A DNA stretch of 64,000 bases, taken from the NCBI GenBank assembly GCA_964526445.1, contig CAZGIY010000001.1, positions 20,363 through 84,362 on the forward strand. Direction: 5' to 3'. A model generated the notes under the pieces. The model was not told the DNA's origin. It did no database searches and saw only the letters and a program-made list of their open reading frames with translations. This document shows, piece by piece, positions 3,876-53,190 of this stretch. Both the position numbers and the translations under genes were made by a program. Origin of the DNA: an uncultured Candidatus Poseidoniales archaeon. GTDB lineage: Archaea > Thermoplasmatota > Poseidoniia > Poseidoniales > Poseidoniaceae. Each line of letters starts with the position of its first letter. Within the stretch, counting starts at the first letter, position 1.

Positions 3876-4238
3876 TTATTCTTCTTCAATCAATACTTCA
3901 ACTGGTGGCACTTCCACTTCCAACCGCTTGGACGAAACTTCAGATTCATCAGGGATGTGAAAATCAGAAATTCCCCCCCGCCATTTTGTAGTCATATCCT
4001 CGACTTCCTCGTTTTCAATTTGTGGAATTTCTGAATCTGGATTAAGACTGTACATAATTGGATCAATGGGTTTTACTGGCTCCTCTGTTCGTATAGGTTG
4101 TGCCCTTTCCTCAAGGTGCGCAGTAGTGTGAAAGGTGCCGCATTCAGGGCATCTACTAGAACCAACTTGCTGTATACAACCACATGCTGAACAGACGCTC
4201 AGTCCGTCGAAGACGGCGAGCGGATCCATTTTCTTCAC
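3876..4238 (-). CDS. Zinc-ribbon protein with acidic C-terminal tail
   Basis: CSACG-x9-CPECG zinc ribbon followed by an E/D/P-rich tail. It is translationally coupled to the EF-hand protein gene, whose stop overlaps this gene's start at 4235-4238. Confidence 0.5.
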   Translation of the reverse strand: MKKMDPLAVFDGLSVCSACGCIQQVGSSRCPECGTFHTTAHLEERAQPIRTEEPVKPIDPIMYSLNPDSEIPQIENEEVEDMTTKWRGGISDFHIPDESEVSSKRLEVEVPPVEVLIEEE

Positions 4239-6142
4239 TCCAGAAACATGCTGTCCTGAGGAGCCTCGATTTCGTCTCCAGTTTCTTCATCTTCGATGAT
4301 TACAGTCTCAGCATCATCATCGAATTCCAGGATGGTTCCGAAAATCTCCTCGCCGTCCAATTCGACTCCAACTCTGGAACCTACGTCGATGTCTTCTCCC
4401 TCATCGCCGTCCTCTCCATCGTCTTCAGAATCCTCATCATCATCTGAGTCTTCATCCGAATCCTCATCATCATCTGAGTCTTCATCCGTATCCTCATCTT
4501 CTGAATCTTCTTCTTCATCTGAATCCTCATCTGAATCCTCATCGTCATCATCTTCGGATTCCTCATCATCTGAGTCTTCATCCGAATCTTCACTATCACC
4601 AGCATCTTCGTCTTCTGCTTCATCGTCTGAATCCTTCTCGTCCGAATTGTCTTCATCGGACTCAGTTTCTTCTGTAGAATCTCCCTTCGCTTTTGCTCTC
4701 CACTGTTTCATCAATACCAAATGGGCATACAGAGAACCTCCAAGACCAATGGCACCGAGGATAATCATCAGGATACCGTCCCAATAGAAGCCAGCAGGCA
4801 TTGAACCAGCTCCATCACCAGCAAGAGGTGTCAAGGAATTAGCACAATCGTGAATAGAAGGGTCACAAGCAGTTGAATCACCCTCGTTAATCAGGTTATC
4901 ATCAGCATCAACAAAGGCATCTCCTGTGTGTTCAATGATGCCTCCTTCTCCGCTCACAAATATTCCTAGTCCATTTGCAATCCATAGAACCATGAATAGT
5001 CCGAAGAGTGCATGCATAATTGGCCAAAATATGTCATTCGCCTTCTTTGACATCAATTTCTTTTGCAGGTCAGAGGGGAATTCCTTACTTGTAGCCGAAT
5101 CGCTCTTTTCTTCATTAGCAGCCTTCTCTTCTTCATCTTCGAAGGTTTCGCCAAATGCGACAACTAATTCTTCGATACTTATGCTTCCATTTTCGTCGAA
5201 ATCAACCTCTGCCATGACTTCATCAACATCATCATCTGAGATAACGCCACCACCGAATTGAGTTAGTGCTGAATTAAGTTCTTCCCTGTCAATCTGTCCA
5301 TCATTATTGACGTCCATATGCTCAAAGGCGGCCTGCGCATTGTATCCTGCATCTTTGAAACTCTTGACCATTCTTCCTAGGGGAGTATCTGGTATTTCCT
5401 CTTCTTCATCATCGGAATCGTCATCCTCCTCCTCTTCGGAACCATCACTTTCTTGATCACCATCATCAGCGTCTTCTTCCCCGTCATCTGAATCGTCTTC
5501 TTCGTCCTCACCTTCGGATTCTACTTCTTCAGGGGCATCATCCTCTAAGTCCTCTTCTTCAGAAGCATCTTCCTGATCATCTGATTCTTCCTCTTCAGAA
5601 GCATCTTCCTGGTCATCTGATTCCTTCTCTTCGTCTTCAGGCCCCACCTCTTTGGAAGGTTTGTTATCAGGAGGTGTGAATGTTGATTCTAACTCTTGTA
5701 GGTCGATGACCCCGTTTCCATCCTCATCCAATGTGTCAACCAGGCGATTGACCTGAGATTCAGGCAGATCTGCAATATTCAATGCCAATAGACCAGTCTT
5801 GAATTCCTGTGCTTCTATTACTCCGTCGCCATTGGCGTCGAATCTTTTGAACAAATCTACGACTGAAAGACCAGTTGCATTCAACCAATCAGCGAGAATT
5901 TGGATAACGTCGTCTGCGACGAAAACCACTCCACATTGCGGACATGAACGCGAATCCAAGGGAACCAAAGCGCCACATGCGCCACATTCTCCTAGACTTG
6001 TATCACTCACACCGGTGAAGGATACTCCACACCCGGGACACTCCGTTGAGTCTACAGGGACTACTGCCCTACATGCTCCACACTCGGCCATACCTTCCTT
6101 GTCTGTATCTTCTTCAGTCATGGAAACCCATACTGTCCACAT
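4235..6142 (-). CDS. Membrane-anchored EF-hand calcium-binding protein with N-terminal double zinc ribbon and poly-acidic (D/E/S) tail
   Basis: Two CxxC-x9-CPxCG ribbons. Four canonical 12-residue EF loops: DANGDGVIEAQE, DEDGNGVIDLQE, DVNNDGQIDREE, DFDENGSISIEE. Two hydrophobic helices (IFWPIMHALFGLFMVLWIANGLGIFV and ILMIILGAIGLGGSLYAHLVLM). About 130 aa of a C-terminal DSDEDSDDDE-type tail. Confidence 0.7.
   Translation of the reverse strand: MWTVWVSMTEEDTDKEGMAECGACRAVVPVDSTECPGCGVSFTGVSDTSLGECGACGALVPLDSRSCPQCGVVFVADDVIQILADWLNATGLSVVDLFKRFDANGDGVIEAQEFKTGLLALNIADLPESQVNRLVDTLDEDGNGVIDLQELESTFTPPDNKPSKEVGPEDEEKESDDQEDASEEEESDDQEDASEEEDLEDDAPEEVESEGEDEEDDSDDGEEDADDGDQESDGSEEEEDDDSDDEEEEIPDTPLGRMVKSFKDAGYNAQAAFEHMDVNNDGQIDREELNSALTQFGGGVISDDDVDEVMAEVDFDENGSISIEELVVAFGETFEDEEEKAANEEKSDSATSKEFPSDLQKKLMSKKANDIFWPIMHALFGLFMVLWIANGLGIFVSGEGGIIEHTGDAFVDADDNLINEGDSTACDPSIHDCANSLTPLAGDGAGSMPAGFYWDGILMIILGAIGLGGSLYAHLVLMKQWRAKAKGDSTEETESDEDNSDEKDSDDEAEDEDAGDSEDSDEDSDDEESEDDDDEDSDEDSDEEEDSEDEDTDEDSDDDEDSDEDSDDDEDSEDDGEDGDEGEDIDVGSRVGVELDGEEIFGTILEFDDDAETVIIEDEETGDEIEAPQDSMFLE
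4427..4600. repeat. Coding tandem repeat (30-bp unit gaatcctcatcatcatctgagtcttcatcc x2 perfect, then degenerate copies) encoding a D/E/S tail
   Basis: Direct inspection of the sequence. Confidence 0.7.
5557..5630. repeat. Coding tandem repeat (36-37 bp unit x2) encoding SDDQEDASEEE(E/D)
   Basis: tcagaagcatcttcctg(a/g)tcatctgattc(t/c)ttc repeated back-to-back. Confidence 0.6.
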
Positions 6143-29853: not shown

Positions 29854-32418
29854 GTGTGCCGACAAAGATTCTATTTCAGATGGGGTGATGCAGCAGCGAG
29901 GATAGTCATGCGGGTACGCGGTGGGCCACTTGTCGCTTTACTGCTAACTTCGCTTTCAGTTATTGCACTTGCACAAGCTGCAACACCTAGTGGCATGGGA
30001 TTTGTTGGTGCGCATACAGTGGTTAGGGAAAGTTTCGATGAAACGCATAGCGTTGCCCTTTCTCCAGACGCCTCCCTTATTGCCACAGGGACTGAAGGAT
30101 ATGTTATTATTTCGCGCATATCCGATCGTTCTATAGTTGAAAGAATATCAGTAGGGGACCAAGTAACTGCTCTAGAATTCTCTCCCGATGGAGAATATCT
30201 CGCTTTGGGGCTTAGGTCTGATGCCCTTTCGGGGGATGCACTTAAAGTGCTATTCACTGATGATTGGAGGGAGTACGAAAAGACATTTGCTAATGGTAAA
30301 AATCCCAGTGACATTTCATTCTCTGATGCGGGAGATAAGATACTTCTTCAGGGTCAGGACAAAGATGTGTTCGAGTTGTCATTCCCCGAATTTTCCATAT
30401 TGGGTCACATGACGGGGCACCATTTGGATGATATTACGTGTACAGATTATGGATATGGGGGATTGATAGCAGTATCTGGTGGATTGGATGGTAAAATCGC
30501 TTTCTGGGATCTTTCAGATCATTCACTTTCCTCATCAATTGAGTTCGAGGATTCTGAAATTGTTGATTGTTTATTCAATCCATCATCTTCTCAAGTTGCC
30601 ATCTTGACAGATGACGGAAAAGTTAGATCATATTGGTTGAACGGGACTTTGGTTGAAGGCTCAGAACTCGATTTCCTACAAGCTAAGGAGCTCAAGTGGA
30701 GCCTTAATGGAAACCATCTATATGTATTGGAAACCAATATTTTGCCTTCTTTGCAGCGTGTGAGAGTGAATGATTGGATAGTCGATGAGTTCACTTACAT
30801 AGGTCACAATGTGAATGGATTTGATTTATCGGATGATGAAGAGACATTAGTGATTAGTACTGGAACTGTACATACGAGTGTATATCAGTCGACGTACTTC
30901 CAGCAAGGTTTTGGTGAGCCGGGAGATGATTTTGATCAAGATGGAGTGCCAGACGTAATCGATGTTGATGATGATGGTGATGGAATTTTGGATATTTACG
31001 ACCTCAACTGTTCTAGTTCAGATTGTACCAAGGACCCACATCCCAATTATATGCGAAATATTGAGTTTCAAGTATCTGATGAGGAGTTAATCATAAGCGA
31101 TAGCATATCATTCAATAGATCCGATTCTAATGCATTGAGAAATTTGACTACAAGTCTACTTTCTGATGATAACAAAATTAGTGTCGACGAATTAACTTGG
31201 ATGTCAACTGCCATGTGCGATAATATTAGACATAGGGATGTTATTGATCAATGGCATTCAATGATTGAGGTTGAGGGTTCACAATTGAGCAATGGAACAC
31301 TATCCTGTGAACCCGTATCTGGAATTTCTTCCAATGATTTCAGCGATTTTAGTCATAGGGCAACTCTTACTTGGATTACAACATTTGATTTATCGAGTGC
31401 TCCAATTGCGCCCTACAATATTACAGTAAAGGGAATTATCCTTGCTCCTACTGGCTCTTCCGCAATCATTGCCCCACAGTTCCCGGCTTCAATCGATTTT
31501 GCCGATTTGAATTCAGAAAATAATCGAATTGACTTGTGGAATCGGAACGAAACGATTAGAATTGTCTTGATGGAAGAATTGGAGGAAGAAGGACCTGGAT
31601 TGACTGGCTTAGTAGCGTCGTTCATTTCAGACAATTTTTGGATTCCAATAAGCAGTTTCCTTGGAATCTTTATTGGTATCGGATTGATTATCAAGCAAAA
31701 CAAGGACATTTCTAATGCATTGATTCGTGGGGGTAGAGAGGAAGATGAAGAGGGGGAAGATGAAGAGGATGATTATGATGAATCATTCAATGACTCAAAT
31801 CTATATGAATCTGAACATTACGAGGAGTCCGATTCCGCTGACGACGAGTCAACATGGAGTAACGAATCAGAGTCTATGCCTCCTCGGCCAAAACGGCGCC
31901 CTCCTCGAAAATCTACGAGAAGAGTAGCACATGAAGAGTATCCTATCGGTGATTCTACTCCTGTCAAGGCTAGGAGAAAGCGCGTTAGTAGTAAACAACC
32001 AATTGGTTCTAAGCGACACACTCTTTCTGAATCTGTAGAATTGGATTATGATTATGGCCAAGACGGAGTATATCATGATGGTGATTGGGATACAGAGTAT
32101 GACATTTACGAACAGCCCCAGACCAAAGTACGCAAAGTGCGTAAAGTGGAAAGCGTTCCTGAACTTGAAGCGGAAGAATCCAAGCCGGAGCAAAAGAAAG
32201 GAAGAAGGAAGGTTAAGAGGCGCAATAACGAGAAAGGAAAAGCCTCCAGTAAAGCAGTGGATGATGATTCCATCGTTGCAAAGAAAGTTGTTACGTCCAA
32301 GAAACGCAGTTCAGGGTCAAAGAAAACTCAAGATGATGGAGGCAAAGTCTCGTCTGATGATGAAGATTCAGCAATGGACAAAGCATTGGGTATGTTAACG
32401 GGTGATTCCAAGGATTGA
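29854..32418 (+). CDS. Secreted/surface beta-propeller protein with thrombospondin-type-3-like Ca-binding repeats, C-terminal TM anchor and highly charged cytoplasmic tail
   Basis: Signal-peptide-like LVALLLTSLSVIALAQA. WD40/PQQ-like repeats. DQDGVPDVIDVDDDGDGILDIYD. A C-terminal TM segment (ISSFLGIFIGIGLII), then an E/D- and K/R-rich tail. Confidence 0.7.
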   Translation: MCRQRFYFRWGDAAARIVMRVRGGPLVALLLTSLSVIALAQAATPSGMGFVGAHTVVRESFDETHSVALSPDASLIATGTEGYVIISRISDRSIVERISVGDQVTALEFSPDGEYLALGLRSDALSGDALKVLFTDDWREYEKTFANGKNPSDISFSDAGDKILLQGQDKDVFELSFPEFSILGHMTGHHLDDITCTDYGYGGLIAVSGGLDGKIAFWDLSDHSLSSSIEFEDSEIVDCLFNPSSSQVAILTDDGKVRSYWLNGTLVEGSELDFLQAKELKWSLNGNHLYVLETNILPSLQRVRVNDWIVDEFTYIGHNVNGFDLSDDEETLVISTGTVHTSVYQSTYFQQGFGEPGDDFDQDGVPDVIDVDDDGDGILDIYDLNCSSSDCTKDPHPNYMRNIEFQVSDEELIISDSISFNRSDSNALRNLTTSLLSDDNKISVDELTWMSTAMCDNIRHRDVIDQWHSMIEVEGSQLSNGTLSCEPVSGISSNDFSDFSHRATLTWITTFDLSSAPIAPYNITVKGIILAPTGSSAIIAPQFPASIDFADLNSENNRIDLWNRNETIRIVLMEELEEEGPGLTGLVASFISDNFWIPISSFLGIFIGIGLIIKQNKDISNALIRGGREEDEEGEDEEDDYDESFNDSNLYESEHYEESDSADDESTWSNESESMPPRPKRRPPRKSTRRVAHEEYPIGDSTPVKARRKRVSSKQPIGSKRHTLSESVELDYDYGQDGVYHDGDWDTEYDIYEQPQTKVRKVRKVESVPELEAEESKPEQKKGRRKVKRRNNEKGKASSKAVDDDSIVAKKVVTSKKRSSGSKKTQDDGGKVSSDDEDSAMDKALGMLTGDSKD

Positions 32419-45572: not shown

Positions 45573-46190
45573 ATGATGAGGTACTCTTGTTTGGGGGGTG
45601 CAATGGCGAATGATCCGAATGAATTGGTGATGGCTGGAAGTGTCCCAAATTCGACGCAACATCCCCTAGAGGTTCTGCACCGTCAAATCAGTTTTGTCAT
45701 GATAGGGACGATCTTCCTGTTCGCCTTATTCGTGTGGACAATTTTCAATACGATTTCTAGTGGTTTTGGATGGGTCTCATTGTTCCCTTGTATAATTCTA
45801 GGAGTAATATGGTCTGGTTTCAAGAATCGTAGAGAATGGGCTTATCCTTTTGCAGTCGCGTTAAATGCAGCAGCAATCGTACTCTTTGGAATACTAGCAT
45901 TCATGTTTATTTTCAGCGGAGATATGTTGTCTCTATTGTTGGGAGTATTATTGATGTTCACAGCAGTATCTTCAATTCGTCGATTAAATATAATGAGAAA
46001 TGTATTGTTCAAAGCATGGTATTTGGGCATGGAGATCCCCATCCATGGCACAGGGTTGGATGAAGGTGAGATATACGCTAGTTGCCCACATTGTTCTTCG
46101 ATTCTAGCAATAAGGCCAATGCAATTAACGCGGGAGGATGACTGCCCATCATGTGGACAACCTCTGGTGCTAAGCCAAGAAGAAGAATGA
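45573..46190 (+). CDS. Membrane protein with C-terminal zinc ribbon
   Basis: Four TM helices, then CPHCS...CPSCGQP. Confidence 0.4.
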   Translation: MMRYSCLGGAMANDPNELVMAGSVPNSTQHPLEVLHRQISFVMIGTIFLFALFVWTIFNTISSGFGWVSLFPCIILGVIWSGFKNRREWAYPFAVALNAAAIVLFGILAFMFIFSGDMLSLLLGVLLMFTAVSSIRRLNIMRNVLFKAWYLGMEIPIHGTGLDEGEIYASCPHCSSILAIRPMQLTREDDCPSCGQPLVLSQEEE

Positions 46191-46197
46191 TTCAACT

Positions 46198-47223
46198 TCA
46201 GCGTGAAGCCAATGTAAGGTTCTTCCACATATCTTCTGGAACTTCCATGGAGAGTCTCAAACCACCCATGGCACCGAGTCGAACAGGATCATCAACTACG
46301 TGTACATTTATTTCTCCCAAATCAGAGAGTCTCTCCTCAATCAATGCACCAAGACCTCGAATTCCTGAGCCACCTCCTGCTAGAATCATATTACGACGGA
46401 ATGAGTCATGGTATTCTGGGTTCGATGAAGCAATAAGTGCCTTAACTCTCTCAACAATCGGGTCGACAATACTTTCACAAGCATTCTGAATACAATCAGT
46501 AATATCGAGAGTCATCGCTTTACCTTCGATGGAGAAATCTACCATAATTGGATCATCAGGTGGTGATGCCCCTGTAAAGGAGTGCTCTTCCTTCCATCTT
46601 CGAGCCATATCCTTGGTCACTTGAGCGCCGTTGTACTTTATCTGTACTTGTTCGATGATTTGGTTATCTACGTAATCCCCAGCATACTGTGTGTGAACCT
46701 GGTCATCTGGTTCTGGAATTGTACCATATACTCTGCATACGTCAGTTGTTCCTGCACCGATATCAATAACCAAAGTGTGTTCAAGCATGTCCAAAGCATA
46801 AGCAACAGCGAATGGTTCAGATATAATCATACAAGCATTTACAGTTCCGGCTGCAGCGTCAAAGATGTATGTCTTATCGACATATGATGCCTCAGCAGGT
46901 GCTCCAATCACTGCTACCACTCTATCGTATTCTTCAGGGTCTGCCAGACCGATTAGATGGGTGATGAAATGGGCGATGAATTCTCTGTCCTTCTGAGTAT
47001 CCTTGATTACACCGTGTTCCAAAGGCCGGAAGAGATCAAGAGCCAATCGATTCTTCAGTGCTTCTTCTCCAAATAGAACGTCTCTCTTGAGGAAGTTTCT
47101 GGCGATATGATCTTTCGGAGTACCAATAACAGTAAGTTCCTCTTCCTCGTGATTATCACTCGATACCATTACGGAACGGAAGGTTCCCAAGTCCACTCCA
47201 ATATACAGTACATCTTCAGCCAT
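46198..47223 (-). CDS. Actin-fold (ASKHA) ATPase, ParM/Ta0583/MreB-like rather than eukaryote-like actin
   Basis: YIGVDLGTFRSV phosphate-1, VIDIGAGTTD phosphate-2, ILAGGGSGIRGL adenosine motif. Lacks eukaryotic actin signatures. Confidence 0.7.
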   Translation of the reverse strand: MAEDVLYIGVDLGTFRSVMVSSDNHEEEELTVIGTPKDHIARNFLKRDVLFGEEALKNRLALDLFRPLEHGVIKDTQKDREFIAHFITHLIGLADPEEYDRVVAVIGAPAEASYVDKTYIFDAAAGTVNACMIISEPFAVAYALDMLEHTLVIDIGAGTTDVCRVYGTIPEPDDQVHTQYAGDYVDNQIIEQVQIKYNGAQVTKDMARRWKEEHSFTGASPPDDPIMVDFSIEGKAMTLDITDCIQNACESIVDPIVERVKALIASSNPEYHDSFRRNMILAGGGSGIRGLGALIEERLSDLGEINVHVVDDPVRLGAMGGLRLSMEVPEDMWKNLTLASR

Positions 47224-47297
47224 TTGCTCGCCTCATTACGCGGGACTTGAAGCGGACTTATGAAGCATACCACAGAAGTATGCCTGGTATGGCTTCC

Positions 47298-48305
47298 TCA
47301 TACCCATGTTTCACAGGGAGAGCAATACCATGCTGCGTACTCAGGATAAAGGTCAGCCATGCCTCCACAACCGGTGCATTCCTTGACTGCTCTATCTCCG
47401 AAAATACCCATAACTATGCGCACGTGGTCAGCATCTGAAATCCCCAGTTGTTCTCTCATCGCCCATAGCATCTGGTCTTCACTTGGCGAAATTATCCCAT
47501 CCTCCAGCACGATTTGAACTGCCGCTTGATAATCTTCGACCATTCGTACATCACGGGCGTCCATTGATACACCTCCCTTTTCAGCCACTAAATCTTGACC
47601 TCCAGGGTCGTCAACATAGATTACTAGTGATGCTGAATCCAATTGTGTATTTTTCATTTCAAAGAGGATGGAGGCGCCATCATTAGAAGCATAAACAAAG
47701 TTTGACAATCGATTGATTATACTGGCCATGTTACGCGCAGTATCTTCGATTGTACGTCCTCGGCGCCAACCTCTACTATCATCCTCATCATAACCATAGA
47801 ATTCGGTCCCCCTTCCGGGATATTCCAAACGAACTTCCTCTCCGCCATCGAATTCGTTGTTAAGCAAGGTAACCGATGCGATCACCGTATTGCCAATGTT
47901 ATCATCGTCATCAAAGGAAATCATCAGTGGTTTACGTTCTTCATTAGCAACATTGAATGTCCCTTGTAAACCTGTCATCCACTTATCTTCAAGACGCTGT
48001 AGACTGGCTTCTTGTTCTCTTGAGAGGTCCTTATTAATCCCTAAAACTCCTCTCAATTGACCGCTCTCCATCTCTTGTCTGAATTCATCAATCAACTCAG
48101 CATCTCTACGATGATTGGGAGGGGGGCCTCTGGTAGCTTGAACATGATTCGGGTCTTTCCATTCATGGGAACATTTCACACATATCAGGAACCCTGCCAA
48201 TGATGAGGGCTCAGCCTCTCCCCTGCATCGTGGGCAGTCGCCTTCTTCATCGACGTTCAGATTCTCGCCTGCAGCCTTTCTTCCTCGCCTGATGCCCATT
48301 CCCAT
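47298..48305 (-). CDS. Zinc-ribbon protein (N- and C-terminal CxxC pairs) of unknown function
   Basis: CPRCRG...CVKCSHEW near the N-terminus, CTGCGG...CSPCETWV at the C-terminus, and a TerB-like helical region. Start reassigned to ATG 48305, because the track ORF overlaps the thiolase gene by 128 nt. Confidence 0.4.
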   Translation of the reverse strand: MGMGIRRGRKAAGENLNVDEEGDCPRCRGEAEPSSLAGFLICVKCSHEWKDPNHVQATRGPPPNHRRDAELIDEFRQEMESGQLRGVLGINKDLSREQEASLQRLEDKWMTGLQGTFNVANEERKPLMISFDDDDNIGNTVIASVTLLNNEFDGGEEVRLEYPGRGTEFYGYDEDDSRGWRRGRTIEDTARNMASIINRLSNFVYASNDGASILFEMKNTQLDSASLVIYVDDPGGQDLVAEKGGVSMDARDVRMVEDYQAAVQIVLEDGIISPSEDQMLWAMREQLGISDADHVRIVMGIFGDRAVKECTGCGGMADLYPEYAAWYCSPCETWV

Positions 48306-50267: not shown

Positions 50268-50663
50268 TTACTGGAATTTGCCGCAGGCAGAACAGAATTC
50301 TAGGTCCCCTTCAAGTATAGCATCACAATGTTTGCACACTGAATCTCCTTGCTGTGCAGTTTTGCCTTGGGCGATATCTAGATTGGCAACTAAACGGACC
50401 GCTTTCTGTAGTTCTAGGGGATCATGTCCTGCATCTTTCAATTCCTTCCATTTGTATCGGAATGCGATGGCCTCTTGAATTGCCGCCTCTATCTGCAGAC
50501 GTCTACGATTTCGTTCTTCAACATCGGTAATTTCTTCAGACTTTTCCAATTCAGTCTGCAAATGCCGTTGAAATTCATCCACAGTTGGATTATCACCCAT
50601 GAGTCTACGAAGAAGCGATTGGTCTTCATCCCACCGGCGAATGACTTTGAGTAAGGCCCCCAT
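50268..50663 (-). CDS. Small protein with C-terminal zinc ribbon
   Basis: CKHCDA...CSACGKFQ. Confidence 0.3.
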   Translation of the reverse strand: MGALLKVIRRWDEDQSLLRRLMGDNPTVDEFQRHLQTELEKSEEITDVEERNRRRLQIEAAIQEAIAFRYKWKELKDAGHDPLELQKAVRLVANLDIAQGKTAQQGDSVCKHCDAILEGDLEFCSACGKFQ

Positions 50664-51480: not shown

Positions 51481-53190
51481 ATGCACGTGCGTAAGATAGG
51501 CGAGCACATGAACAGTGGAGGCGATTCTCTACCCGGGCACTCCGCGCAACAGGTCGATTTCATGATGGAACGCCTAATTTATGTCAACGAAGATGACAAA
51601 CCTATAGGGTATGTTGAAAAGTTTGATGCCCATTTTGGCAGAGGGTGTTTACATCGCGCCTTTTCTCTACTCGTCTTTGATTCCAGCAATAGATTACTTC
51701 TACAGAAGCGCTCTAGTGATAAAATCACATTTCCCGGAATATGGGCTAATACTTGTTGCTCGCATCCGTTGAACAATGACGAAGAAAGAAACGGCTTTGA
51801 AGGTAGCATCAAAGCAGCAATACGAAAGGTGGAGCAAGAATTAGGAGTTGACACTACTGATTTGAGACCGGAAATGTTTGTCCCTGCTTCCAAGATGCTG
51901 TATATGTCAAGAATGGATGAGGAATGGGTTGAGAAAGAGTTGGATCATATCATTATTCTAAGAAGCGACCTTGTTTGCTCACCTAATCCAAATGAGGTAG
52001 AAGAAATAAAGTGGGTAAGTGAGGAAGAGTTACAAGAATTTCTTGCTGATTCTAAAGGTGAAATCATTGCGCCTTGGTTTAGATTGATTGCTGAAAGACT
52101 TCTTCCCGCATGGTGGGAGGATTTAGATTCAGTAAGTGACGATGGTCTGATTCATAATTTTGGACGTATCGACCTAGTACCATCTCCAATTATTGGCGAA
52201 ACTTTGGAGCAGGCAGTTGCTAGGTGCCGACCTCGGGTCGAGGAATTGCTCGTACAGGCACTAAACAAGACGTCTGTACCACGTTTGCGGAATGCAATGA
52301 TGCACTTGATCGAAGGAGGAGGTAAACGCTTGCGAGCAACATTGCCACAATTGGTAGCAGAGGCATTAGATGTGAGTCCAGAAAATGAAGATCTAGAATT
52401 TGTGGGAGCTGCACTAGAAGTCATTCACAATTTCACTTTAGTTCATGATGACATTATGGATGATGATGAAATCAGGAGAGGGCGCCCCGCAGTGCACATA
52501 GAATATGATGTACCTACTGCGATTAATGCCGGAGATGCTATGTTGGCAATAGGTTTTGAATTGCTCGTAGAGGATGGAAATATTGCACCTGATTATCTTT
52601 CAGATGTCATTTTGGACATCTCTTCAATGGTTCGCAAAGTTTCAGAGGGGCAACAACTCGATATCGCTTTCGAGAATGAAGAGAATATAGGTGTTGTAGA
52701 ATATATGCAAATGATCGAAGGCAAGACCGCAATTATGTTCCAAACCGCTGCGCGCCTTGGCGCATTACTTTCTGGAGCAAGGGATAAAATTGTAGATGCT
52801 TGTACTAACTGGGGTCTGCATTTGGGAATGTGTTTCCAGTTGATGGATGATTTAATCGACGTATTGAGTGATGGAAAGACATTGGGTAAACCAAGAGGCA
52901 GTGATATTGCTCAGGGGAAGAAGACTCTCATGGTACTACACGCTCTAGAACAGCAAGGTGATGATGTTGACTTGTTGAAATCTATTCTTGGTAAAGGCGA
53001 GAATGCAACTCAGGATGAATTAGATTCTGCAATAGGGGCCTTGGAACGATTGGGTTCTATCCAATACGCGCGGGAAACCGCCGAAGCTTGCCACAATTCT
53101 GCCCATGTGGAACTAGATAGATTACCGTATTGGGCAGAACTCTCTGTTTTACGAGAGTTAACAGATTGGCAGATAAAAAGAATTTCTTGA
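51481..53190 (+). CDS. Fusion protein: type-1 (Nudix) isopentenyl-diphosphate isomerase plus geranylgeranyl diphosphate synthase
   Basis: N-terminal half HRAFSLLVFDSSNRLLLQKRSSDKITFPGIWANTCCSHP...WFRLIAERLLPAWW is collinear with eukaryotic IDI1. C-terminal half has FARM LVHDDIMDDDEIRRGRP and SARM MDDLIDVL of trans-prenyltransferases. Confidence 0.8.
   Translation: MHVRKIGEHMNSGGDSLPGHSAQQVDFMMERLIYVNEDDKPIGYVEKFDAHFGRGCLHRAFSLLVFDSSNRLLLQKRSSDKITFPGIWANTCCSHPLNNDEERNGFEGSIKAAIRKVEQELGVDTTDLRPEMFVPASKMLYMSRMDEEWVEKELDHIIILRSDLVCSPNPNEVEEIKWVSEEELQEFLADSKGEIIAPWFRLIAERLLPAWWEDLDSVSDDGLIHNFGRIDLVPSPIIGETLEQAVARCRPRVEELLVQALNKTSVPRLRNAMMHLIEGGGKRLRATLPQLVAEALDVSPENEDLEFVGAALEVIHNFTLVHDDIMDDDEIRRGRPAVHIEYDVPTAINAGDAMLAIGFELLVEDGNIAPDYLSDVILDISSMVRKVSEGQQLDIAFENEENIGVVEYMQMIEGKTAIMFQTAARLGALLSGARDKIVDACTNWGLHLGMCFQLMDDLIDVLSDGKTLGKPRGSDIAQGKKTLMVLHALEQQGDDVDLLKSILGKGENATQDELDSAIGALERLGSIQYARETAEACHNSAHVELDRLPYWAELSVLRELTDWQIKRIS

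Follow-up and report, generated by a model that had tools for sequence, protein, structure and literature searches.

A probable core MamK-family actin-like ATPase of Poseidoniales archaea and its zinc-ribbon neighbours

Marine Group II ranks with the most abundant archaea of the plankton; its members are uncultured, and their cell biology is almost uncharted. The window studied here (the whole stretch of DNA that was analysed, 64 kb in length) comes from the chromosome of an archaeon of the Poseidoniales (Marine Group II) and is housekeeping in character; in it, a gene for an actin-fold ATPase is flanked by two genes for zinc-ribbon proteins. This arrangement raises the question of whether the three genes constitute one cytomotive system, with the two ribbon proteins as filament adaptors as an earlier note on this DNA had proposed, or whether the ATPase stands apart from one or both of its neighbours. 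The best overall explanation, which we consider likely, is that a MamK-family actin-like ATPase is encoded by a core chromosomal gene of Poseidoniales and that the three genes are not one module.

Gene content of the locus

No magnetosome, plasmid or virus genes were found among the scanned open reading frames of the 64-kb window; these were either housekeeping genes or of unassigned function, and no Mam-type protein was among them. The ATPase gene is chromosomal and archaeal, as had been supposed. All three open reading frames were confirmed, together with the motifs, zinc ribbons and four transmembrane segments that had been ascribed to them, and the locus holds the following features:

45603..46190, (+) strand: four-TM protein with a C-terminal zinc ribbon (from hydropathy and CPHC...CPSC)
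46198..47223, (-) strand: MamK-family actin-like ATPase, 341 aa (from HMM, PDB sequence matches and AF2 fold)
47257..47264, (-) strand: TTCATAAG element, probable TATA-like promoter box of the actin gene itself, 33 nt upstream of its ATG
47298..48305, (-) strand: double zinc-ribbon protein, 335 aa, Poseidoniales-specific, candidate actin partner

The reading frame of the membrane protein spans 45573-46190 on the (+) strand and is started at 45603 by public gene calls, which gives a protein of 195 aa. Its hydrophobic segments number about four, at roughly residues 39-57 and 61-79 with two more within 89-135, the last two being fused into one long region by the hydropathy scan. The mechanical reading frame of the 335-aa gene extends to 48482, and conservation begins at the methionine of MGMGIR at 48305.

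Zinc ribbons were defined as two CxxC knuckles 10-25 residues apart that are kept among homologues. Ribbon-like CxxC...CxxC pairs were present in approximately 8 of the 59 open reading frames of the window, so that a zinc-ribbon neighbour is not rare in this genome, and two such neighbours would be met by chance at a rate of a few per cent.

The TTCATAAG element occurs once in the 64-kb window. TTCATAA was found 29-41 nt upstream of the actin ATG in 76 of 80 GTDB loci, including those of a clade in which an inversion separates the actin gene from the 335-aa gene, and TTCAT-type elements also precede other genes of the window as well as the 335-aa gene in other species. We infer that TTCATAAG probably acts as the TATA-like box of a promoter belonging to the actin gene itself and, by promoter assignments of the same kind, that the actin gene and the 335-aa gene seem each to have a promoter of their own. 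A hairpin that lies in the 74-nt spacer between these genes in the window was dropped from consideration as it was not kept in other loci.

Family membership and conservation of the actin-like ATPase

The motifs taken as diagnostic of the actin fold were DxGT (phosphate-1), DxGxGTT (phosphate-2) and GGGS (adenosine). In the 341-aa protein these correspond to DLGT at residue 11, DIGAGTTD at residue 154 and GGGSG at residue 283, all within a two-lobed fold of the actin/ASKHA filament type. The NCBIfam model for MamK (NF040964) matched the protein with 361.6 bits and an E-value of 3.6e-108 over model positions 1-331 of 335; this score is below the curated cut-off of 400 bits, yet MamK is the best family by far. 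The BeeR model (NF053558) gave 219 bits at a cut-off of 530. Among solved sequences the best matches were likewise to MamK (5LJW, 5LJV and 5JYG; E 2e-75, 39% identity, full length), and E136 and D154 of the protein align with the catalytic residues E143 and D161 of MamK. The AF2 model had MamK as its top fold match (E 2e-28, TM 0.76), with TM scores of 0.6-0.76 over its matches to structures of MamK, BeeR, MreB and actin. It is a moderate model (pLDDT 73, with the subdomain at residues 24-75 poorly predicted) because the underlying alignment is shallow.

Judged from these sequence and model comparisons, the 341-aa protein is a MamK-family actin-fold ATPase and not one of the ParM/Ta0583 type, to which it had been assigned in the earlier note. 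ParM, Ta0583 and crenactin were absent from both the PDB sequence matches (E<=1e-3) and the top 50 fold matches. Full-length matches were confined to MamK, BeeR, MreB and actin, which upholds the claim of a filament-type ATPase distinct from sugar kinases, Hsp70 and acetate kinase. An alternative reading of the protein, as an ASKHA enzyme or chaperone that forms no filaments (sugar kinase, Hsp70-like or acetate-kinase-like) or as a segregation ATPase of the ParM type borne by a mobile element, has only shared ASKHA motifs and weak HMM tails in its favour (HSP70 E 0.086, ParM E 0.066, EutJ 34 bits). This is scarcely credible in view of the full-length matches, the housekeeping context with no mobile-element genes and a syntenic position that is kept throughout the order; in addition, scans of viral contigs returned no copies of the 335-aa protein or of a second Poseidoniales actin paralogue.

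Source annotations at NCBI and JGI name the gene 'rod shape-determining protein MreB', and as an MreB orthologue it would be expected to determine rod shape through membrane-bound antiparallel filaments that guide envelope synthesis. Pfam MreB_Mbl did match with 92.8 bits, over its cut-off, and MreB structures were significant fold matches. The Pfam model is broad, however, and takes in MamK-like proteins too, while the NCBIfam models for MreB scored 90 bits (NF010539) and 81 bits (TIGR00904) against cut-offs of 293 and 366. Over solved structures, the E-value for MamK was lower than that for MreB by some 60 orders of magnitude. To our knowledge these archaea also lack the peptidoglycan machinery that MreB would guide. 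MreB orthology is consequently improbable. MreB stands as a distant relative after MamK and BeeR, and the database label is imprecise for the Poseidoniales actin.

A neighbour-joining tree, built without support values, placed the protein inside a MamK-like radiation. Its sister is the second Poseidoniales paralogue, the next clade out is bacterial, and true magnetosome MamK falls in a different subclade. The nearest relatives beyond Poseidoniales are bacterial, at 47% identity, and inter-domain transfer of the gene, in either direction, would fit this distribution. A 2009 survey had placed some archaeal sequences within the MamK branch. None of the papers within the literature searched connects Poseidoniales or Marine Group II with MamK, MreB or actin.

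Among GTDB species representatives, 357 loci matched the actin. Identity was 78-100% across Poseidoniales, the highest conservation in its neighbourhood: the mean pairwise distance was 0.10 as compared to 0.22-0.50 for five neighbouring genes, and the actins of the order's two families were 79% identical as compared to 31-70% for the neighbours. Such extreme conservation fits a polymer surface constrained by contacts between subunits and with partners. Its presence throughout the order, together with this conservation, suggests a core rather than an accessory cytoskeletal protein. By homology to MamK, whose ATP-dependent filaments are double-stranded and non-staggered, ATP-bound monomers would assemble head to tail into filaments that are probably double-stranded, hydrolysis involving Glu136 and Asp154 would drive filament turnover, and the filament may serve as an intracellular scaffold or positioning track.

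Neighbouring genes as candidate partners

The membrane gene is convergent with the actin gene, the two stop codons being 7 nt apart, and on its other side it is divergent from coaBC. A three-part system could be envisaged in which the four-TM ribbon protein tethers the actin to the membrane and the double-ribbon protein connects it to cargo. The arrangement occurs both in the window and in Thalassarchaeaceae, the two families have orthologous membrane proteins, and the four ribbon cysteines of the membrane protein were invariant in the 7 sequences compared. The gene adjoins the actin gene in only 39 of 72 loci (0.53), however, and the retrieved locus lacks it in 30 cases, most of them bearing the label Poseidonia sp. 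In the remaining 3 it is displaced by 2.6-5.3 kb and is still next to coaBC, which it adjoins in 44 of 45 cases. It evolves fast as well, with 9 word-based matches, 34% identity to the Thalassarchaeaceae orthologue and 31-35% between the families. Taken with its opposite strand, these results indicate that the membrane gene belongs with coaBC and probably stands outside the actin system, and a three-part system is very unlikely. The proposal of this protein as an adaptor is not supported.

The 335-aa gene lies directly upstream of the actin gene on the same strand, across a gap of 74 nt. The protein has knuckles CPRC/CVKC at residues 24-45 and CTGC/CSPC at residues 310-331. Within 60 homologues C24, C27, C45, C310, C313, C328 and C331 were invariant and C42 was conserved in at least 90%. 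Homologues formed 291 clusters, and those with a named source were all labelled Poseidoniales or Euryarchaeota. No Pfam family matched the protein over its cut-off. The N-terminal ribbon is like those of IS1595, TFIIB and eL43; PF12760 was matched by 48 of the 60 members and the family profile matched L37Ae with E 0.005. The AF2 model comprises a ribbon at residues 22-50, a segment at 57-138 that is of low confidence yet conserved in sequence, and, at 140-335, a folded domain for which no homologue has been solved. A partial Pfam match to a TerB domain (E 0.0024, 12 of 60 members) was not adopted.

Among the local genes, only this one is a candidate to encode an adaptor or regulator of the filament. 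In a two-component cytomotive system the protein would be dedicated to that role in the manner of ParR, AlfB or MamJ, its ribbons holding a cargo (DNA, RNA or a protein complex) and coupling it to the polymer. If it is indeed the partner, its basic N-terminal arm and ribbon may bind nucleic acid or another ligand while filament binding would fall to its conserved disordered central part or to the C-terminal domain. Adjacency on the same strand is near universal in both directions: the 335-aa gene was directly upstream of the actin gene in 72 of 76 GTDB loci, and the actin gene was directly downstream in 67 of 69 metagenome loci found via the 335-aa protein. The pair also persists while its flanks change, with the thiolase gene upstream replaced or supplemented and the membrane gene and coaBC replaced downstream. 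Both proteins are limited to the same order. The 335-aa protein is 57% identical between the families, as compared to 31-36% for other lineage-specific small proteins, its ribbon is of a nucleic-acid-binding type, and the segment 57-138, conserved in sequence yet predicted to be disordered, has the typical character of regions that become folded when they bind. Related actins, moreover, have adjacent or fused partners.

Set against this, the adjacency of the two genes (0.94) was not above the local background, as unrelated pairs in the same neighbourhood scored 0.93-0.97 (IPK-Zn131 0.97, Zn131-Tpt1 0.95). Conservation of gene order was dropped as a sign of coupling for this reason. The co-conservation of neighbours that the earlier note had asked for is thereby seen for the 335-aa gene at the background rate, and fails for the membrane gene. 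An inversion in one clade has parted the two genes, which are both kept but lie on opposite strands 2 kb apart, and a promoter-like element precedes each of them. A mirror-tree analysis with partial correlation of evolutionary distances gave no specific signal of co-evolution between actin and the 335-aa protein (0.21, below the 0.44 for actin and IDI). Finally, neither the sister paralogue nor the bacterial relatives have a protein of the 335-aa type. On balance we regard a dedicated two-component system as possible, though somewhat more doubtful than probable, and the actin as a core gene outside any three-gene module remains the preferred reading.

Other MamK-like actins likewise have lineage-specific proteins next to them or fused to them. 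The second MamK-like paralogue in Poseidoniales has a coiled-coil neighbour, and the neighbours and fusions of MamK-like actins that belong to no Pfam family include a coiled-coil protein of 426 aa, fusions with a coiled coil at the N-terminus and a repetitive protein exceeding 1940 aa. The coiled-coil neighbour of the paralogue showed no homology to the extension that the bacterial fusion proteins carry at their N-terminus. A bolder view is that Poseidoniales have two paralogous MamK-like filament systems, each with a lineage-specific partner, in which the 335-aa protein is a new kind of adaptor that would bind nucleic acid or other cargo via its eL43/IS1595-like ribbons and dock via the conserved disordered segment. 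We think this rather unlikely. If it were true, abundant ocean archaea would have an actin-based positioning or segregation machine assembled from a bacterial-type actin and an archaeal invention, and the zinc-ribbon neighbour, if a partner at all, would represent a new adaptor class.

Comparison with known actin-like systems

The locus brings a mainly bacterial, magnetosome-organising actin family into an archaeal setting, and the MamK family is used beyond magnetosomes. The actin is tractable for in-vitro polymerisation and cryo-EM without culture of its host.

The closest known counterpart is MamK of Magnetospirillum (5LJW, 5LJV and 5JYG), with which the Poseidoniales actin shares a full-length actin fold at 39% identity with no large insertions, the three conserved nucleotide motifs and the counterparts of E143 and D161. 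Magnetosome MamK, in contrast, is located in a magnetosome gene cluster and acts in chain positioning. We know of no magnetotaxis in the host order, no mam genes lie in the 64-kb window, and the double zinc-ribbon neighbour is unrelated to MamJ, MamY or McaA/B.

BeeR (PDB 8R2N), a three-stranded tubular actin of Verrucomicrobiota (PMC11929497), is similar in being a MamK-related actin of a non-magnetotactic organism and was the second-best match (E 5e-45 by sequence, 3e-25 by fold). The BeeR family is marked by a disordered N-terminal extension of 30-50 residues and is 25-30% identical to MamK (PMC11929497), whereas the Poseidoniales actin starts 10 residues before DLGT, has no such extension and is nearer to MamK than BeeR is. 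MreB shares the superfamily, the name in public annotation and significant fold matches, but is far more distant (E 1e-14 as compared to 2e-75 for MamK).

The likeness to ParM/ParR/parC and to Ta0583 is one of concept only, namely an actin-like filament with a small adaptor gene next to it. The Poseidoniales actin is chromosomal and core, unlike the mobile-element-borne ParM/ParR, and an adaptor of the ParR type is a ribbon-helix-helix protein whereas the 335-aa candidate carries zinc ribbons. Salactin and volactin of haloarchaea are likewise archaeal actin-fold cytoskeletal proteins and appeared as secondary Pfam and NCBIfam matches. Both matches were weak: salactin gave 57 bits in Pfam, above a broad cut-off of 27, and 62 bits in NCBIfam at a cut-off of 400, and volactin gave 30 bits at a cut-off of 35.

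Gene layout and family assignment

The motifs quoted in the earlier note for the actin-fold ATPase (DLGT, DIGAGTTD and GGGSG) and the cysteine pairs of the zinc ribbons it ascribed to the neighbours were all present in the three open reading frames concerned:

45573-46190, + strand: membrane-protein ORF, 205 aa; public gene calls begin at 45603, giving 195 aa
46198-47223, - strand: actin-fold ORF, 341 aa; DLGT at residue 11, DIGAGTTD at 154, GGGSG at 283
47298-48305, - strand: double zinc-ribbon ORF, 335 aa; CxxC at 24/27, 42/45, 310/313 and 328/331

The membrane protein contains about four hydrophobic segments and, after them, CPHC...CPSC. Its gene and that of the actin converge, their stop codons lying 7 nt apart; relative to coaBC it is divergent. 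The 335-aa gene is located upstream of actin on the same strand with a spacer of 74 nt in the window. Its mechanical ORF reaches 48482, overlapping the thiolase gene, and conservation among homologues starts at the methionine of MGMGIR. Zinc-ribbon-like motifs were found in about 8 of the 59 window ORFs, so that a ribbon-bearing neighbour is common in this genome.

The 341-aa protein is assigned by profile searches to the MamK family as a predicted member, although its full-length match to NCBIfam MamK (361.6 bits, E 3.6e-108) is below the cut-off of 400. Scores against the BeeR (219 bits, cut-off 530), MreB (90 bits, cut-off 293) and Salactin (62 bits, cut-off 400) profiles were lower, and ParM was matched at E 0.066. 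Searched by sequence against solved structures, the protein matched three MamK entries best (E 2e-75 to 4e-74), followed by BeeR (5e-45), MreB (1e-14) and actin (about 1e-3), while Ta0583, ParM and crenactin were absent among these matches. Identity to Magnetospirillum MamK was 39% over 333 aligned residues, and E136 and D154 were the conserved counterparts in the alignment of MamK E143 and D161, which are required for ATPase activity and filament turnover. MamK was also the top Foldseek match (E 2e-28, TM 0.76), ahead of BeeR and MreB, of an AF2 model built from a shallow alignment (pLDDT 73). The type given in the earlier note, ParM/Ta0583/MreB-like, is not favored by these profile, structure and fold matches and is therefore replaced by MamK-like. 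Its reading of the protein as a filament-type actin holds, as the full-length matches are to MamK, BeeR, MreB and actin and no grouping with sugar kinases or Hsp70 was seen.

Zinc-ribbon neighbours as candidate filament partners

The earlier note had proposed that the actin is sandwiched between zinc-ribbon genes whose products act as its adaptors. The membrane protein is orthologous across Poseidoniaceae and Thalassarchaeaceae, with 34% identity and invariant cysteines, and is fast evolving. Of 72 evaluable loci, only 39 have its gene next to actin, and in 30, mostly labelled Poseidonia sp., it was missing from the stretch retrieved; in locus L019 actin is instead followed by a 247-aa protein and transaldolase. 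In contrast, the gene is adjacent to coaBC in 44 of 45 loci. In three loci (L076, L079 and L087) insertions of 2.6-5.3 kb part actin from the membrane gene, which is still beside coaBC. The membrane gene belongs with coaBC rather than actin, which refutes its product as the adaptor, and the sandwich, real as a layout in the window, is therefore partly incidental.

Homologues of the 335-aa protein fall into 291 clusters, every named one of which is from Poseidoniales or unclassified Euryarchaeota, and no Pfam family was matched above cut-off. Seven of the eight cysteines and many other positions were invariant among 60 sequences, C42 being at least 90% conserved. The N-terminal basic arm and ribbon resemble those of IS1595, TFIIB and eL43; PF12760 was matched by 48 of 60 family members, the family profile matched L37Ae at E 0.005, and the genome's own L37ae aligns across the ribbon with 30% identity. 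The predicted structure (pLDDT 70.7) comprises a ribbon at residues 22-50 and a confident domain at 140-335 that ends in the second ribbon, whereas residues 57-138 are of low confidence in the model yet highly conserved in sequence. Domain 140-335 had no significant fold match among solved structures and gave weak local matches only, with the insertion domains found in phage tail proteins.

A role for this protein as functional partner to the actin filament is possible, though in our estimate somewhat less probable than the contrary. Of 76 evaluable GTDB loci, 72 have its gene directly upstream of actin and in the same orientation (median spacer about 127 nt), actin is directly downstream in 67 of the 69 metagenome loci retrieved via the 335-aa protein, and the pair endures while flanking genes on both sides vary. 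However, background synteny is equal, with values of 0.97 for IPK-Zn131 and 0.95 for Zn131-Tpt1 against 0.94 for 335-aa/actin, and since functionally unrelated neighbour pairs are as stable, synteny in Poseidoniales is not discriminating. The two genes are moreover uncoupled naturally in an inversion clade (L015, L016, L021, L096 and L097), in which the inverted segment extends from the IDI fusion as far as the 335-aa gene. The resulting order, 335-aa gene (-), thiolase (-), Tpt1 (+), actin (+), leaves the 335-aa gene 2 kb off on the opposite strand with both genes kept. Separate promoter-like elements upstream of each gene likewise speak against coupling, as does a partial correlation of evolutionary distances of 0.21, below the 0.44 of actin-IDI. 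Co-conservation of the neighbours, and with it the adaptor proposal, is thus refuted on the membrane side and, despite the stable pairing, unsupported beyond background for the 335-aa protein.

The highest partial correlation in the distance-matrix analysis (0.59) linked the 335-aa protein to a small 131-aa zinc-ribbon protein encoded three genes away (50268-50663, - strand) and not to actin; this may just be similar rate variation.

Upstream elements and genomic setting

In 76 of 80 loci, inversion clade included, TTCATAA precedes the actin ATG by 29-41 nt. The octamer TTCATAAG/A (window 47257-47264, - strand) lies about -40 from the actin ATG in loci L011-L172; across almost all Poseidoniales loci its distance from the actin start is fixed, and usually there is no second copy within about 20 kb. 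The octamer is probably a promoter box, although its degree of conservation is unusual. In many species the 335-aa gene is preceded by a related element (TTCATAGAAAG; CAAAGnnTTCATAGAAAG), and TTCAT-type elements also precede other window genes. Judged by sequence, TTCATAA-type elements would be ordinary promoter boxes, in which case the 335-aa gene and actin would form separate transcription units.

A palindrome, TCTATAGA, was observed just past the 335-aa stop codon, about 90-105 nt before the actin ATG, in many Poseidoniaceae loci (L017, L019, L024, L026, L027, L029, L043, L047, L060, L068 and L076), with variants such as TTTATAGA in L014, L039, L066 and L078. It is absent from the window; it might act as a terminator, as a regulator site or as an alternative TATA box.

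The window covers a housekeeping part of the chromosome. It encodes translation and RNA-processing proteins (Kae1/TsaD, MetRS, ProRS, EF-2, S7, S12, L37ae, an exosome RNase PH subunit and Tpt1), the primase small subunit and a proteasome ATPase, as well as metabolic functions (histidine utilisation, a formate-dehydrogenase-like complex, menaquinone synthesis, transketolase, transaldolase, CoaBC, thiolase, isopentenyl phosphate kinase and a Nudix-polyprenyl synthase fusion). The 64 kb showed no magnetosome, plasmid or virus genes, and viral contigs scanned for the 335-aa protein and a second actin paralogue gave no matches. Homologues carry the labels Candidatus Poseidoniales, Poseidoniaceae or Thalassarchaeaceae, all of which belong to the Marine Group II archaea. 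Three loci (L011, L015 and L070) carry the archaeal syntenic block with actin 83-98% identical yet are filed as bacterial MAGs (Yoonia sp., Deltaproteobacteria bacterium and Verrucomicrobiales bacterium), probably through binning contamination or mislabelling of public records. Three further window genes were recorded:

4235-6142, - strand: 635-aa protein with an N-terminal double zinc ribbon (PF12773) and several EF-hand calcium-binding domains, an unusual architecture in an archaeon
29854-32418, + strand: 854-aa protein whose N-terminal third contains a WD40 beta-propeller, the remainder without family assignment
51481-53190, + strand: single 569-aa protein in which a Nudix domain, probably a type 1 IPP isomerase, is fused to polyprenyl synthase; it adjoins isopentenyl phosphate kinase, an arrangement kept across the order

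Distribution and relatives of the actin

Actin was present at 357 loci among GTDB species representatives, with 78-100% identity within Poseidoniales, and is the most conserved gene in its neighbourhood. Identity between the window (Poseidoniaceae) and Thalassarchaeaceae was 79% for actin versus 31-70% for ten neighbours, and mean pairwise distance was 0.10 versus 0.22-0.50 for five neighbours. Among the 50%-identity representatives searched, the nearest relatives outside Poseidoniales were proteins of 520-1230 aa (45-47% identity) in which a coiled coil at the N-terminus is joined through a long low-complexity linker to a MamK-like domain at the C-terminus (L010 420-3065; L091 10001-12364; proteins P0243-P0259). 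They are encoded in bacterial surroundings (UvrC, D-Ala-D-Ala ligase, Por secretion tail), and we are not aware of an earlier description of this fusion architecture. Relatives at greater distance included 'MamK family' proteins of Nitrospira (45%) and proteins of Acidobacteriota (43%) and ANME-2/Methanosarcinales (41%). In a neighbour-joining tree computed without support values, the Poseidoniales actins were placed within the MamK-like radiation beside the bacterial fusion clade, with magnetosome MamK in a different subclade, a position that would be compatible with inter-domain transfer.

The window holds one actin gene only. A second MamK-like Poseidoniales paralogue, P0249 (335 aa; identity with the window actin 44%), was sister to the window type in the same tree, and its contigs are also Poseidoniales as judged from NCBI names of flanking proteins. 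Behind it, on the same strand, comes the gene of a 426-aa coiled-coil protein (P0457; L007 8001-10381, also L008 and L009) that bears the JGI label 'chromosome segregation ATPase' and heads a 675-member cluster; no homologues of the 335-aa protein or the membrane protein were found near P0249. Two other MamK-like actins were noted in L173 5001-11077 and L174 1-4507. One, from ANME-2, has an acidic repetitive protein of >1940 aa without Pfam domain behind it, separated by 25 nt; the other, P0251, is located within a chemotaxis (che) operon, with cheD on one side and, on the other, a 291-aa unknown gene and then cheC. A MamK-like actin that adjoins or is fused to a lineage-specific protein without Pfam family is a recurrent pattern.

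The best-supported reading is that the actin would form an ATP-driven cytoskeletal filament of the MamK family and that this filament would be a core component in cells of Marine Group II; the 335-aa protein may be its one plausible candidate lineage-specific partner. No description of a Poseidoniales MamK-family filament was found in a literature search. Such an actin would be useful for archaeal cell biology and readily amenable to in vitro work. Some archaeal sequences were placed in the MamK branch in a 2009 survey, and MamK relatives in non-magnetotactic organisms are able to form unusual polymers (BeeR, PMC11929497).
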